A stretch of 64,000 nt of DNA, from positions 20,217 through 84,216 of the IMG/VR virus record IMGVR_UViG_3300001598_000040; one strand, 5' to 3'. Shown piece after piece: positions 13,021-23,350 of this stretch. The translations under genes were made by a program, and so were the position numbers. The DNA comes from a virus. Lineage: Duplodnaviria > Caudoviricetes. Within the stretch, counting starts at the first letter, position 1, and each line of letters starts with the position of its first letter. The notes below the pieces were generated by a model, which was not told the origin of the DNA, searched no databases, and saw nothing but the letters and a program-made list of their open reading frames with translations.

Positions 13021-13085
13021 TTTTTTTCATCACCTTTCTATTATATTATATCAAAAATTTTTTTTAAAATCAAAAGAACTCTGAT

Positions 13086-16497: not shown

Positions 16498-19041
16498 TTA
16501 ATATCTAAATATTACAATGTCTTTAATTTCATCGTCATATTGATATACATAAACAAAGGATTCAGTTCCTTCTGTAAATAATGACTTAGAACCTGTTTTA
16601 GATTTAATATTTACTTTGCCGCCAGACGAATAATCAACCAAAGTATAGGTTATATTAGATTTAATTGTAATACCATCTTCTGCAGGATAATTATCTATAT
16701 CTTCTGCTAAATAGAATTTATTATATTTAGCATCAACTACTCTATTTCCAATCTGAATAGCTTCAGCAGATTTAAATAATACATCAAAATCTTTAACAAC
16801 ATCCTCTTTGGAATTACCTAATAATAAAACATCACCTTTATCTAAAGATGGTAAATCTTTATAATCATTATAGAATGTAAATGATACTGATTTTCCTTTT
16901 TGTAAACCAGATACTAATAAAGCATCATCATCTTGATATTCAATATTACTAATTGAAGTTACAATAAATACATTATTATCTTCAACTACTCTATCAAAAT
17001 TATATCCAATAACAATAGTAACTTCATCTTCATCTTTTTCTGTTAAAGCAATAAAATCTAAATCTTCATCTTTATCATTAAAGAAATTATCAACAGAACC
17101 AATTTCAATATCACTATCTGTAATAACAGTAGCATCATTACAGATTGAGAATACTAATGTTGATTCATTAAAATCAGAAGCGCCATAACTCATATTCTCA
17201 GCATCATAAACTTTAGAATTAGATGAATCATATGTTTTAGTTGAACCTTCAAAAAGATTTAATTTAGTAATTTCATTACCTCTTAGAGTAATATCAAATA
17301 GTGCGGAATTCACATTGCTCTTTTGAAGTTTTGTTCCTCCGAGCGCAGTTTGTAAATATTCATATACCTCTTCGTCAGAATCCGCAATCAATGTTTTTCC
17401 ATCATACAATTTAGCTTTTGAAGCTAAAGTATATTTGTTAGTACCTTTTGATGTAACAACTTTTACTGTATACTCTTCATCTGATGTATAGCCTGTTGAT
17501 AATACTAAACCATAGTTAGTTCCAATTGAACCTGAAGTTGTATCATTATATACAATCTTTCCGTCCACATTTAAGTAGAATGTTCCACTTTCTCCTAACA
17601 AATCTTCTGGAGATTCATTAAAGAATGGTGATAATTCATAAGATTCACCTGCGATTGTAACGGTATCTTCATCGATATCATATGAAGTAACTGAGCCTGT
17701 AATAGTTTTGTCAGAAATGTATAAAATTCTGAAAGTTTCCATTTCAATTTCTGTAACGGTGTCATTAATACTAATGTCATAAGGATCAATCTCCTTTCCG
17801 TTTTTAAATACTTTTACAGTATCTTCAGTTAAATCGATCTCAGATAAAATACCTGCGCCCTTAGCATCAAAGGTAATATATTCATCATCAATATCAATAG
17901 CTTTTACTACTGCTTCATTTGTATAAGAAGTACCTATAATATAATCAATTTTATTATCATCATTATTATCAATAAATTGAATATTTCCATTCTCTACATA
18001 TGATAATAAATCTAAAGTATTATAAATATTAACTTCTTTATAATTAATAAAACTAATTACATTTTCATCTAATTTCAAATATGAAGGCTTTGAAGAATTA
18101 TTTTCATAATAATAAATTTTACCATTCTCATCCGCATATTTATAACCAGCTTCCGCAATATCAGATACTGATAAATATAAATTAGATGTCTTTGTATCTT
18201 CTGCAACTGAAATTAAATCATCATCTTCATTTACATAAGCAATTACAGTAGTACCAAGATATGCACTCAAATCTTCTTTTGTATTGACAGTAATATTATC
18301 ATAATCTTTTGCATAAACACCATCATTATAAGTGTCTTTATAACCGTCAATAGATAAAGTAAAATTTGTATTATCATATCCATCTAAAATAGGTGCATCA
18401 TATACAACACCGTGCCACACATCTACATCAAATACTTTAGATAACAAAGTATCATCAGATTTGGTATAAGATGTTTCACCATTAGAATTCCAACTATCTG
18501 CTTTAAACAATTGACTATTTAATGCGTTATAAATCAATTGAGCTAAATCTTTTCTAAGAATTGGTTTTCCAATAGCTACTGATACATTTTTGTTTATTTT
18601 TTCTGAAGCTACGATGTTTAAATATCCTGACGGATAACCGCCACTCTTTTCTGCTAATACATCATAACCAAGTGCGCAACAAACTACCTTTGCTGCTTGT
18701 TCATAAGTAACATTTTCCTCAGGTCTAAAAGTTCCATCTTCAAAACCATTAATAAGACCTAACTGCGCGCAGGTTGCAATATATCCTGACGCCCAGTGTG
18801 ATTCATCTACATCACTAAAATTAGTAGTAGATTTCTCAGGAACTTCCGCATTTAAAGTTCTTGTTACAATAGCAGTAAATTCTGCTCTACTTAACTCTTT
18901 CTCTAACTGTAAATCACCATTTTCATCGCCTTGTAAAATACCTAATCCAATGAGTAAGTCATCTTTAGAATCGGCATTTACTGAAAGTAGTGGAGTACAA
19001 GCTATAGATAAAGAGATAAGCACTCCTAAAAGTTTCTTCAT
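16498..19041 (-). CDS. secreted S-layer homology (SLH) domain protein
   Basis: Signal peptide MKKLLGVLISLSIA; SLH motifs LGILQG..SRAEF, FSDV..HWASGYI..LGLINGFEDGTFRPEENVTYEQ, ILRKDLAQL; acidic beta-rich body. Confidence 0.88.
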   Translation of the reverse strand: MKKLLGVLISLSIACTPLLSVNADSKDDLLIGLGILQGDENGDLQLEKELSRAEFTAIVTRTLNAEVPEKSTTNFSDVDESHWASGYIATCAQLGLINGFEDGTFRPEENVTYEQAAKVVCCALGYDVLAEKSGGYPSGYLNIVASEKINKNVSVAIGKPILRKDLAQLIYNALNSQLFKADSWNSNGETSYTKSDDTLLSKVFDVDVWHGVVYDAPILDGYDNTNFTLSIDGYKDTYNDGVYAKDYDNITVNTKEDLSAYLGTTVIAYVNEDDDLISVAEDTKTSNLYLSVSDIAEAGYKYADENGKIYYYENNSSKPSYLKLDENVISFINYKEVNIYNTLDLLSYVENGNIQFIDNNDDNKIDYIIGTSYTNEAVVKAIDIDDEYITFDAKGAGILSEIDLTEDTVKVFKNGKEIDPYDISINDTVTEIEMETFRILYISDKTITGSVTSYDIDEDTVTIAGESYELSPFFNESPEDLLGESGTFYLNVDGKIVYNDTTSGSIGTNYGLVLSTGYTSDEEYTVKVVTSKGTNKYTLASKAKLYDGKTLIADSDEEVYEYLQTALGGTKLQKSNVNSALFDITLRGNEITKLNLFEGSTKTYDSSNSKVYDAENMSYGASDFNESTLVFSICNDATVITDSDIEIGSVDNFFNDKDEDLDFIALTEKDEDEVTIVIGYNFDRVVEDNNVFIVTSISNIEYQDDDALLVSGLQKGKSVSFTFYNDYKDLPSLDKGDVLLLGNSKEDVVKDFDVLFKSAEAIQIGNRVVDAKYNKFYLAEDIDNYPAEDGITIKSNITYTLVDYSSGGKVNIKSKTGSKSLFTEGTESFVYVYQYDDEIKDIVIFRY

Positions 19042-19314: not shown

Positions 19315-19491
19315 TCAAATCATCCTCCTTTAACGGTTCAACAACCTTATAAAATAAATTAATAATTTCAAATGTTCTACAAGACTCTAATTTCTTTCCT
19401 GCTTCACTTTTTCTAACTCCTAAAGATTTAAGAACTTGTATCATTTTACCCTTTGTCATCATCATATTTCTTCATTCCTTTCTAAAATCAT

Positions 19492-20098
19492 AAAATGATT
19501 TTATTACGATTTTAAATTAGACCTTCGCCTTGCAATTAAATATTTTCTATTTTCTTCAGTCACAGTGTAGATATATGTGAACTTATAGCCGCTAAACCAT
19601 AAGCTATATATCTAATGAATATTTCGCAATCCAACTTCGCACTTGTTGGGATGTTTACCAACAACTTTCACCCGTCATTCACATAATTTGATACATTTTA
19701 TCATAATTGTTAATTTACTCAATGTTATCGCCAATTTGGGCTACTCGAACTTTAAACTCATCTTATACTCTACTTTCATAGTATCAACAGCGAACCTTAT
19801 TATTGGTATTTCTTGAGTTTGCTATAAACTACCAATTTATAACCTTATCAAGATTATTCTCCACAGGAGCGTCTATTATTAAGGCGATGAGAATAATACT
19901 TTAAATAGCAATATTCAATTGTACATTCTACCAGAACTCTTTGATTTATACTCAAGCAATAACTATATCACTATAATTATTTTCATATATACCAAGTATC
20001 CTTAGTATAAAATCCTATCCCTCTTTAAGGTAGAACTCTCAGCCGCATAACATTGCGGTTTACACTGAGTTAATTTAAAACCATAATAAAATCATCTT
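19492..20098 (-). ncRNA. large ornate RNA, ROOL-like (~607 nt)
   Basis: 28-bp terminal helix (20071-20098 with 19492-19519, G-U pairs included), many internal hairpins, no ORF, next to tRNAs; segments AAUUGGUAGUUUAUAGCAAACUC..AUACCAAU and CGAGUAGCCCAA match ROOL as I recall it. Confidence 0.8.
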
Positions 20099-20264
20099 AT
20101 AGTTTGGGAATTTAAGGAGTTGCACCTTCTGTTTCACTGGTATTCCCATATTCGGGGTGGTTAACCCCGATTAATTTATCTTAGAAAGGATGATAAATTT
20201 TTATGGAGTTTTAAAGTCAACTAACTGCACATCTGTTGTCATAGGAAGTTTTGCTATTCCTTTA

Positions 20265-20341
20265 TGGGTGCGAGAACAGGATTTGAACCTGTGACCTTCT
20301 GATAATGAGTCAGACGAGCTACCAAACTGCTCCATCTCGCT
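20265..20341 (-). tRNA. tRNA-Met(CAT), initiator-like
   Basis: Cloverleaf, CU-CAU-UA anticodon loop, 1:72 mismatch, encoded CCA. Confidence 0.9.
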
Positions 20342-20429: not shown

Positions 20430-20458
20430 ATTATATCAAAAATTTTTTTTAAAATCAA
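20430..20458 (-). promoter_or_regulatory. sigmaA-type promoter upstream of tRNA-Met and the ROOL-like RNA
   Basis: TTGATT-17bp-TATAAT with extended TG. Confidence 0.7.
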
Positions 20459-21519: not shown

Positions 21520-21558
21520 AAATTTATAATCCTTTCTTAAATTATATCAAAAATTTTT

Positions 21559-22427: not shown

Positions 22428-22664
22428 TCAATTTTTAATCTCTAATGAGGACTCTTCAATTTCTTTATATTTATCCGAGTCTAAAATAAAATGAGGTTCT
22501 GGTTTAAAGTTATCACAATAGTAACAAAAATCCGCAGAATATGGAATACCAAATATCTGCAGAAATAAAGATTGAATTTGTTGTTTTGTAATATTATCTT
22601 GAACTTGAACTAGTTGTTCTCCTCGTTGTCCATTTTCTGTAAATACTCCAAGTAATAAATTCAT
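22428..22664 (-). CDS. hypothetical protein
   Basis: ORF track; RBS. Confidence 0.45.
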   Translation of the reverse strand: MNLLLGVFTENGQRGEQLVQVQDNITKQQIQSLFLQIFGIPYSADFCYYCDNFKPEPHFILDSDKYKEIEESSLEIKN

Positions 22665-23350
22665 TATATAGACTCCTTTTTATAATCGCGGCTGTCCGCT
22701 CTCATATATTCAATAGTACATTCATCATCTTCTATTATCATATAAGCCATTCTATGCTTTCTTACGCAGCCTGCGTCTAAATCAATATCATTATCTTTTA
22801 TAGGTATTACTGTTGGTGTATGACCATGCACATATATCAAATCTTCGTTTTTATAAAAATAATCCCTATTCCAACTGTAGTCATTACCAATATTTCTATT
22901 AAAGCTATTATAAAAATCTATACCATCTTTTGATGATAATAATTCTTCATCTTCATTCTGCGGATATAATGAGTGGCTAAATCTATAGTTGTCAAATTTA
23001 TATAACCATTGTGAGTTTTTAACTAGCCATTTACAGTCCTCCGTCATATCTTCAGAATGATAACTATCAATTGTCTGAAAACCGCCATTGTTATACCAAC
23101 AAGATTTTGAAGTTATATCCCTAAATAAAACAGCTTCACACCACATTATATCGTGATTACCTCTAAGTATAATACAATCATCATTATATTTATTTTTCAT
23201 TTCCTTTAATAATTCAATAACTTTTTTAGTGTTTAAACCTCTATCGCAATAGTCACCAAGAAAAATAATTTTATCAAATATATCTAAATCTATAACTTTT
23301 TTAGCCGTGTAATAAAATCCGTGTATGTCAGTTAGCACTAAAGTTTTCAT
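22664..23350 (-). CDS. PPP-family Ser/Thr protein phosphatase (lambda-phosphatase-like)
   Basis: TDIHG, GDYCDRG, RGNHD, SH, HGHTP, LDAG motifs. Confidence 0.88.
   Translation of the reverse strand: MKTLVLTDIHGFYYTAKKVIDLDIFDKIIFLGDYCDRGLNTKKVIELLKEMKNKYNDDCIILRGNHDIMWCEAVLFRDITSKSCWYNNGGFQTIDSYHSEDMTEDCKWLVKNSQWLYKFDNYRFSHSLYPQNEDEELLSSKDGIDFYNSFNRNIGNDYSWNRDYFYKNEDLIYVHGHTPTVIPIKDNDIDLDAGCVRKHRMAYMIIEDDECTIEYMRADSRDYKKESI

Follow-up and report, generated by a model that had tools for sequence, protein, structure and literature searches.

The ~607-nt stretch without a credible open reading frame (ORF) that follows a tRNA cluster in the phage DNA studied here (the window, 64,000 nt long and part of an 84,216-nt IMG/VR record) raised the question of whether it encodes a ROOL RNA, as the original prediction proposed. 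ROOLs are non-coding RNAs of ~580 nt (family mean 581 nt) that are carried by phages and prophages in the vicinity of tRNA islands and assemble into RNA-only octameric cages (PMC5737381, PMC12286853, PMC12515178). We scanned the window against all 4227 Rfam 15 families at their gathering thresholds and obtained six matches, namely one ROOL and five tRNAs. The ROOL model RF03087 matched 594 nt on the minus strand (19500-20093) with 271.2 bits (E 6.1e-61), as opposed to a gathering score of 99.1 bits, and the match spanned model positions 1-574 of 574 and was not truncated. GOLLD gave no match at its gathering score in the same scan against all 4227 families, OLE RNA (RF01071) had none in the window or the whole 84-kb record, and neither of the two was found anywhere in the window or record. 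The cmsearch with the ROOL, GOLLD and OLE models thus returned ROOL only, and the predicted identity was supported by a full-length match. The complete element, including the closing helix described below, was 613 nt long with a G+C content of 30%. The sole ORF of 40 aa or more inside the 607-nt stretch was a 57-aa TTG frame on the opposite strand (19643-19816) with no Pfam match, in agreement with the prediction that the stretch is free of ORFs. We put the probability at roughly 93%, a figure that covers the whole best explanation given here, that the minus strand of 19489-20101 is a genuine full-length ROOL RNA gene of a large uncultivated phage. The coordinates of its elements are listed in Table 1.

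Table 1. Elements of the ROOL RNA and of its upstream region in the window
Feature	Position	Strand	Basis or remark
ROOL RNA gene	19489-20101	-	Rfam match 19500-20093 plus P1 extension; MFE z = -8.35
P1, 5' strand, 31 uninterrupted bp	20071-20101	-	Helix 1 covaries across 16 ROOLs
P1, 3' strand	19489-19519	-	Pairs with 20101-20071
P2 arm: CUCAG/CUGAG and CCGCA/UGCGG, loop AUGUUA (20053-20048)	20038-20069	-	5/5 consensus pairs canonical in each helix
P2 loop bases, one side of cage contact B1	20052-20049	-	B1 covaries
Junction domain, closed by long-range GUUCUA/UAGAAU (20036-20031 with 19930-19925)	19925-20036	-	6/6 pairs canonical
GGAUAC-loop hairpin, within junction domain	20011-19986	-	
GUGA-loop hairpin, within junction domain	19981-19958	-	
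Small hairpin, within junction domain	19954-19942	-	
Long-range helix, CAAUUGAAUAUU (19921-19910) with 19544-19533	3' strand in 19519-19545	-	12 perfect pairs in MFE
Central domain	19751-19896	-	Helices 15-19 and 21 paired 63-100% across 16 ROOLs
Central-domain helix	19891-19886 with 19762-19757	-	
Central-domain helix	19885-19880 with 19799-19794	-	
Central-domain helix	19853-19848 with 19816-19811	-	
Central-domain helix	19843-19837 with 19827-19821	-	
P7, short hairpin, central domain	19869-19859	-	
B4, central domain: GGUA in loop AUUGGUAGU with UACC	19834-19831 with 19808-19805	-	Covaries
GAAA-tetraloop hairpin, central domain	19781-19770	-	
Variable A/U-rich linker, counterpart of the solved cage's disordered segment	19681-19737	-	Aligns to the model's unstructured insert region
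Invariant junction GAAUGACGGGUGAAAGUU (19680-19663)	within 19643-19680	-	Invariant columns, alignment A1
GACG inside GAAUGACGGGUGAAAGUU, other side of B1	19676-19673	-	
Hairpin UUGUUGG/CCAACAA; loop holds conserved GUAAACAUCC (19658-19649)	19664-19658 with 19649-19643	-	
3' arm: long hairpin 19614-19567, UAGC loop 19594-19591	19564-19643	-	Loop is L18 counterpart
AGGC-GAAG-GUCU hairpin	19530-19519	-	
tRNA-Met (CAU), nearest tRNA, 166 nt upstream of 20098	20265-20341	-	ARAGORN; Rfam tRNA 56.6 bits
Probable promoter of the tRNA-Met/ROOL unit: TTGATT, 17 nt, TG-TATAAT	20430-20458	-	10/12 consensus, extended -10
tRNA-Met/ROOL spacer; G+C-rich hairpin 20170-20152, no U-tract after it on this strand	20102-20264	-	Spacer fold z = -1.73

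We searched IMG/VR for relatives with the pattern TGAATGNNNNGTGAAAGTT from a conserved ROOL junction, which was found in at least 96 stretches. Among the matches listed, 51 stretches showed nhmmer homology to the window ROOL; the best score was only 96 bits, and thus there is no close relative among the matches listed. All of the 16 relatives passed to Rfam were ROOLs (15 full-length with 292-347 bits and one 5'-truncated with 263 bits), so that the window copy at 271 bits was the lowest-scoring full-length copy in the sample of 16 compared, yet far above threshold. The window ROOL was aligned with the 15 full-length, Rfam-verified phage ROOLs (alignment A1), and the register-corrected structure of the window copy was scored on it. 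In this test, which favours the structure somewhat because it was derived from one of the aligned sequences, 70.9% of cells were paired, compared to 40-52% with the 3' partners slid by 1-3 columns. Changes on both sides were seen in 126 of the 164 pairs, and the covariation score was 0.418, as opposed to 0.215 or less in the slid controls, and was reached by none of 500 shuffles. The effect was large, and compensatory changes were clear in nearly every helix. The conserved multi-junction ROOL fold is backed by covariation, and since this is independent of the Rfam score, an artefactual Rfam match is very unlikely.

The minimum free energy (MFE) of the 607-nt RNA was -153.7 kcal/mol, compared to -117.4 ± 4.4 kcal/mol for dinucleotide shuffles (z = -8.35), and none of the 20 shuffles equalled it. 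The first 28 nt of the minus-strand RNA (20098-20071) paired without a break with the last 28 (19519-19492); 3 of the pairs are G-U, and the energy of the duplex is -26.5 kcal/mol. The uninterrupted 28-bp terminal helix that had been predicted is therefore real, and three further pairs extend it to 31 bp (P1). The four pairings proposed as internal hairpins all exist, each at single positions: CCGCA/UGCGG at 20058/20047, UUCUACC/GGUAGAA at 20035/19932, UUGUUGG/CCAACAA at 19664/19649, and UAUAGC/GCUAUA at 19608/19589. UUCUACC/GGUAGAA, however, is not a hairpin but a long-range helix by which a junction of three hairpins is closed. The 9-mer AUGAUUUUA was observed at both borders of the ROOL (20095-20087 and 19491-19483), which could be chance in A/T-rich DNA.

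We projected the Rfam consensus structure onto the sequence, which gave 159 consensus pairs, 7 of them on deleted positions. As aligned, 118 of the remaining 152 pairs were canonical and 34 were not. The MFE fold, which is blind to the family, placed a pair within 2 nt of 116 of these 152 pairs; the helices that it lacked were the long-range ones, with 6/6 pairs canonical as aligned. The energy of the raw projection was poor (-12 kcal/mol), as several A/U-rich helices are shifted by one nucleotide in the model alignment, and such slips account for most of the non-canonical consensus pairs. Helix-level agreement and the register-corrected structure were therefore used.

In alignment A1, the helix closing the junction domain (helix 4) had compensatory changes in 6/6 of its pairs. 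In the region 19519-19545, which holds the 3' strand of the CAAUUGAAUAUU helix and the AGGC-GAAG-GUCU hairpin, helix 28 was 100% paired with 3 covarying pairs. The A/U-rich linker could not be aligned among the 16 ROOLs (alignment columns about 415-485). The only consensus element largely missing from the window copy was a small hairpin between 19640 and 19616 in the 3' arm, which was mostly deleted; the same region is also length-variable in clearly intact relatives (alignment columns 541-600). The conserved motifs AAUAGACGC, GUAUAAGA, AGUAGCCC, GAAUG-N4-GUGAAAGUU and GGCGAAGG and the GAAA tetraloop were all present. Conserved junction nucleotides were found in AAUAGACGC (19877-19869), GUAUAAGA (19768-19761), GAGUAGCCC (19746-19738), GAAUGACGGGUGAAAGUU and GGCGAAGGUC (19529-19520), and every invariant column of the 16-sequence alignment was retained in the window ROOL.

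The structure of the env-120 ROOL from cow rumen has been solved as a D4 octamer, with the inter-subunit contacts given in Supplemental Table 2 (Kretsch et al. 2025, PMC12286853); ROOLs of E. faecalis and Firmicutes CAG:227 have been solved as well (Ling et al., as referred to in PMC12515178). We mapped the env-120 contact residues by eye through the alignment; the sequence printed in the supplement seems to lose two letters after position ~122. In contact B1, the L2 loop pairs with the four bases that follow the linker (U20052-G20051-U20050-U20049 with G19676-A19675-C19674-G19673), through two Watson-Crick and two G-U wobble pairs in the window ROOL, where a U replaces the conserved C of L2. 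Contact B4, between GGUA in a hairpin loop and UACC, consists of four Watson-Crick pairs, and thus 8/8 pairs of B1 and B4 are formed. Across the 16 phage ROOLs, these columns were 82.8% paired, compared to 30-46% when slid, with compensatory changes at 4/8 pairs. One B1 pair varies among U-A, C-G and A-U, and B4 has GACA/UGUC or GGCA/UGCC in place of GGUA/UACC. Of the other contact elements, the GAAA tetraloop (the B2 donor) and the GUAA-CA-CC loop at 19658-19649 (the B5 region) were present, and the UAGC loop (B6) kept the central G-C step of L18. In the window ROOL, P7 is a short stem with a triloop and lacks the bulge on which B3 relies in env-120; P7 is not conserved in every ROOL (PMC12286853), and the regions of P7 and of the deleted hairpin are variable in other ROOL members too.

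Because the contact motifs are retained, we infer on good grounds that the window ROOL can form a cage. The RNA would fold into a flat monomer, and eight copies would self-assemble, free of protein, into a hollow D4 cage like those of env-120 and of the E. faecalis and Firmicutes ROOLs. Assembly would proceed via B1, in which the P2 loop bases pair with GACG of the neighbouring subunit, and via B4; the GAAA tetraloop, the GUAA-CA-CC loop and the UAGC loop would also take part.

Comparison with the solved ROOLs showed that the window copy shares their length of ~600 nt, the multi-junction fold, the invariant junction motifs, the GAAA tetraloop, the B1/B4 complementarity, the variable internal linker, the phage origin and the same-strand tRNA neighbourhood. 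It differs from env-120 in its shorter P7 without a bulge, and it lacks the extra hairpin that env-120 has after GAAUGA. Compared to the family as a whole, it is more A/U-rich (30% G+C), has the lowest score among the copies compared, lacks one 3'-arm hairpin and has two wobble pairs in B1. These differences fall within the variation of the 15 other phage copies. They could also be taken as marks of decay, that is, of a ROOL that has drifted in A/U-rich phage DNA and lost cage assembly or its use; the bit score, the lowest among the full-length copies compared, the 34 non-canonical and 7 gapped positions among the 159 consensus pairs, the deleted small hairpin and the reduction of B1 to two Watson-Crick and two wobble pairs would fit such a copy. 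We regard this reading as very unlikely. Most of the seeming mismatches arise where the model is out of register by one nucleotide in A/U-rich helices, whereas the real helices are perfect (the 31-bp P1, the 12-bp long-range helix and the 7-bp UUGUUGG/CCAACAA helix). All invariant columns of the 16-sequence alignment and 8/8 kissing-loop pairs are kept, the fold has a z-score of -8.35, and the deleted hairpin lies in a region that varies in length in clearly intact relatives. Within this known and structurally solved family, the window copy is an ordinary member, if somewhat A/U-rich and divergent.

The record that contains the window encodes a terminase, a portal protein and topoisomerase II subunits, and is ~54% complete according to CheckV. 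DNA similarity searches with the ROOL and 13 kb around it found no match among 50,697 sequenced phages, and therefore neither a named relative nor a named host can be given. For the portal protein, the highest identity was 44%, to its counterpart in an uncultured human-gut phage. An S-layer-homology protein of 847 aa is encoded on the minus strand 450 nt downstream of the ROOL (16498-19041), and its homologues, with 38% identity or less, come from uncultured Clostridia and Ruminococcaceae genomes, which weakly suggests a host in the Clostridia (Firmicutes). The phage is a large, uncultivated one of gut or rumen type. The original prediction had called this phage copy a tractable system, a view that did not hold up because the record is only a metagenomic fragment, ~54% complete, whose phage is uncultivated and has no known host. 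A calcineurin-like phosphoesterase gene was also observed on the minus strand (22664-23350), 1.5 kb upstream of the tRNA cluster. Its product matches in addition the phosphoesterase part of the phage 'RNA ligase' family PHROG 8238, and a link to tRNA repair is possible.

Five tRNA genes on the same strand were found by ARAGORN and Rfam within 1.1 kb upstream of the ROOL, in the transcription order Leu, Lys, Ser, Thr and Met. We counted 14 copies of the promoter motif AAAWTTTTTGATATAAT, an A/T tract with an extended -10 box, in the window, where 1.2 would be expected, and most of them point the same way as the genes around them (20430-20446, 21541-21557, 13045-13061 and 11 further sites). Owing to this recurrence and orientation, it is probably a real promoter class of the phage's own. 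On the minus strand, no terminator-like site was found between the tRNAs or the promoter and the ROOL, and none after the ROOL. Co-transcription of the ROOL with tRNA-Met is plausible, given the shared strand, the upstream promoter motif and the lack of a terminator in between. The prediction that the ROOL is transcribed with the tRNA cluster needs to be narrowed, since the four tRNAs other than Met lie upstream of the promoter at 20458-20430. With this promoter and no terminator, the likeliest transcription unit would consist of the promoter, tRNA-Met, the 166-nt spacer, the ROOL and the downstream genes, rather than the whole five-tRNA cluster. The ROOL would accordingly be transcribed with tRNA-Met from a phage promoter.

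The spacer between tRNA-Met and the ROOL contains a G+C-rich hairpin of 7 bp (20152-20170, z = -2.39), which could terminate an antisense rather than the ROOL transcript because a T-rich run follows it only on the plus strand. We also considered a 'mini-tRNA' immediately 5' of the ROOL, at 20105-20148 on the minus strand, in which a 7-bp stem would surround a 4-bp hairpin, and found no support for it. Its energy of -8.8 kcal/mol was unremarkable (z = -0.80, with 40 of 200 shuffles as good), it was absent from the MFE fold of the whole spacer, and it was detected neither by ARAGORN nor by Rfam at E up to 1. Comparison with the spacers of two related loci that also have tRNA-Met upstream (L063 and L046) showed nothing conserved beyond the tRNA.

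The spacer of L063 carries a tmRNA-like element that has no counterpart in the window spacer. This element of 83 nt, located between tRNA-Met and the ROOL (L063:2471-2553, minus strand), matches the Rfam tmRNA model at its two ends alone, comprising the acceptor stem, the T arm and a GAC/GGAC helix, and has 14 nt in place of the 308 positions at the centre of the model. Its score is 42.7-51.2 bits (tmRNA gathering score 47), and it looks like a minimal tmRNA-type tRNA-like domain without the message part. A full tmRNA gene (L010:3098-3399, minus strand, 93 bits) shares a phage tRNA island with a ROOL gene in another locus. In two further loci, matches of 84-88 nt to the 3' part of the OLE model (L031:10084-10167 and L065:2050-2137; 53 bits, just above the threshold of 50) lie inside phage tRNA arrays and are possibly tRNA-like false positives.

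The tRNA neighbourhood recurs in other phages. ROOLs have been described near tRNAs and in prophages, and as possibly co-transcribed with the tRNAs (Weinberg et al. 2017, PMC5737381), and many different phages and prophages encode them, often close to tRNA islands (Kretsch et al., PMC12286853). Among the matches listed, 40 of the 51 viral loci related to the window ROOL had tRNAs within 3 kb, always on the strand of the ROOL. tRNA-Met lies directly upstream of the ROOL in L063, L046, L036/L062 and L078. As in the window, the ROOLs of other IMG/VR phage loci (for example L029, L079, L005 and L063) are embedded in same-strand tRNA islands; in several of them, tRNAs abut both ends of the ROOL within a few nucleotides, as opposed to the 166-nt upstream spacer and the downstream protein gene of the window. 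We also took a census of the same-strand ORFs within 4 kb of the ROOL in the window and these 51 loci. Among the matches listed, no protein family was found in more than 7 of the 52 loci and none of the window's ROOL neighbours recurred in more than one other locus, so that no protein emerged as a candidate partner. Among the matches listed, nothing but tRNA genes recurs beside ROOL. Since tRNAs recur there and proteins do not, the cage may act during infection in something tied to tRNA or translation. GOLLD, the other large phage RNA that forms cages, resembles ROOL in that phages and prophages carry it close to tRNA islands, in some cases downstream of tRNA-Met, and in that its cage consists of RNA alone (PMC12286853). 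It differs from ROOL in its unrelated sequence and fold, its length of >800 nt and its assembly as a 14-mer.

The next ORF after the ROOL (19465-19301) starts 27 nt past 19492, or 23 nt past the extended helix, with no terminator in between, and the P1 3' strand can instead pair with 19491-19478, just before the ribosome-binding site of this ORF (a hairpin within 19478-19519 on the minus strand, -9.9 kcal/mol, z = -2.83), yet the resulting idea that the element is a structured 5' leader or cis-regulatory element of the genes from this ORF onward, not a free-standing RNA, is hardly credible, as the census shows that the downstream genes are not conserved among the matches listed, the ROOLs of relatives are often butted directly against tRNAs at both sides, and the 31-bp P1 is much more stable than the alternative hairpin.

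As a free-standing RNA, the ROOL would need processing to be released from the tRNA-Met/ROOL transcript. Excision of tRNA-Met by the tRNA-processing enzymes of the host would separate the 5' side of the ROOL, and a double-strand-specific RNase, for instance RNase III, may trim the 31-bp P1. Long perfect helices are the kind of substrate cut by double-strand-specific RNases. P1 exceeds the Rfam model, and helices of 19-36 uninterrupted bp were found at this place in 9 of the 15 relatives (10 of 16 copies including the window copy). We tentatively propose, as a rather doubtful possibility, that the long P1 is a dedicated RNase III-type stem for excising the ROOL from a tRNA-ROOL-mRNA transcript, and that in other phages flush tRNAs, processed by RNase P and RNase Z, provide an interchangeable second route. 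Such an excision via P1 may resemble that of ribosomal RNA.

The phage origin, the tRNA neighbourhood and the long closing helix are published or family-typical ROOL features. The window ROOL thus adds one phage copy to a structurally solved family and matters little beyond annotation. The ROOLs of E. faecalis or L. salivarius, which have cultured carriers, are better experimental entry points than the window copy, which is a poor one because it has no cultured phage or host. What bears on ROOL biology is that tRNAs are the only recurrent neighbours among the matches listed, that B1 and B4 covary and that long closing helices are common; these observations agree with published work and open no new question. 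Should the proposed excision via P1 prove true, ROOL would mature along either of two interchangeable routes that have not been described so far.
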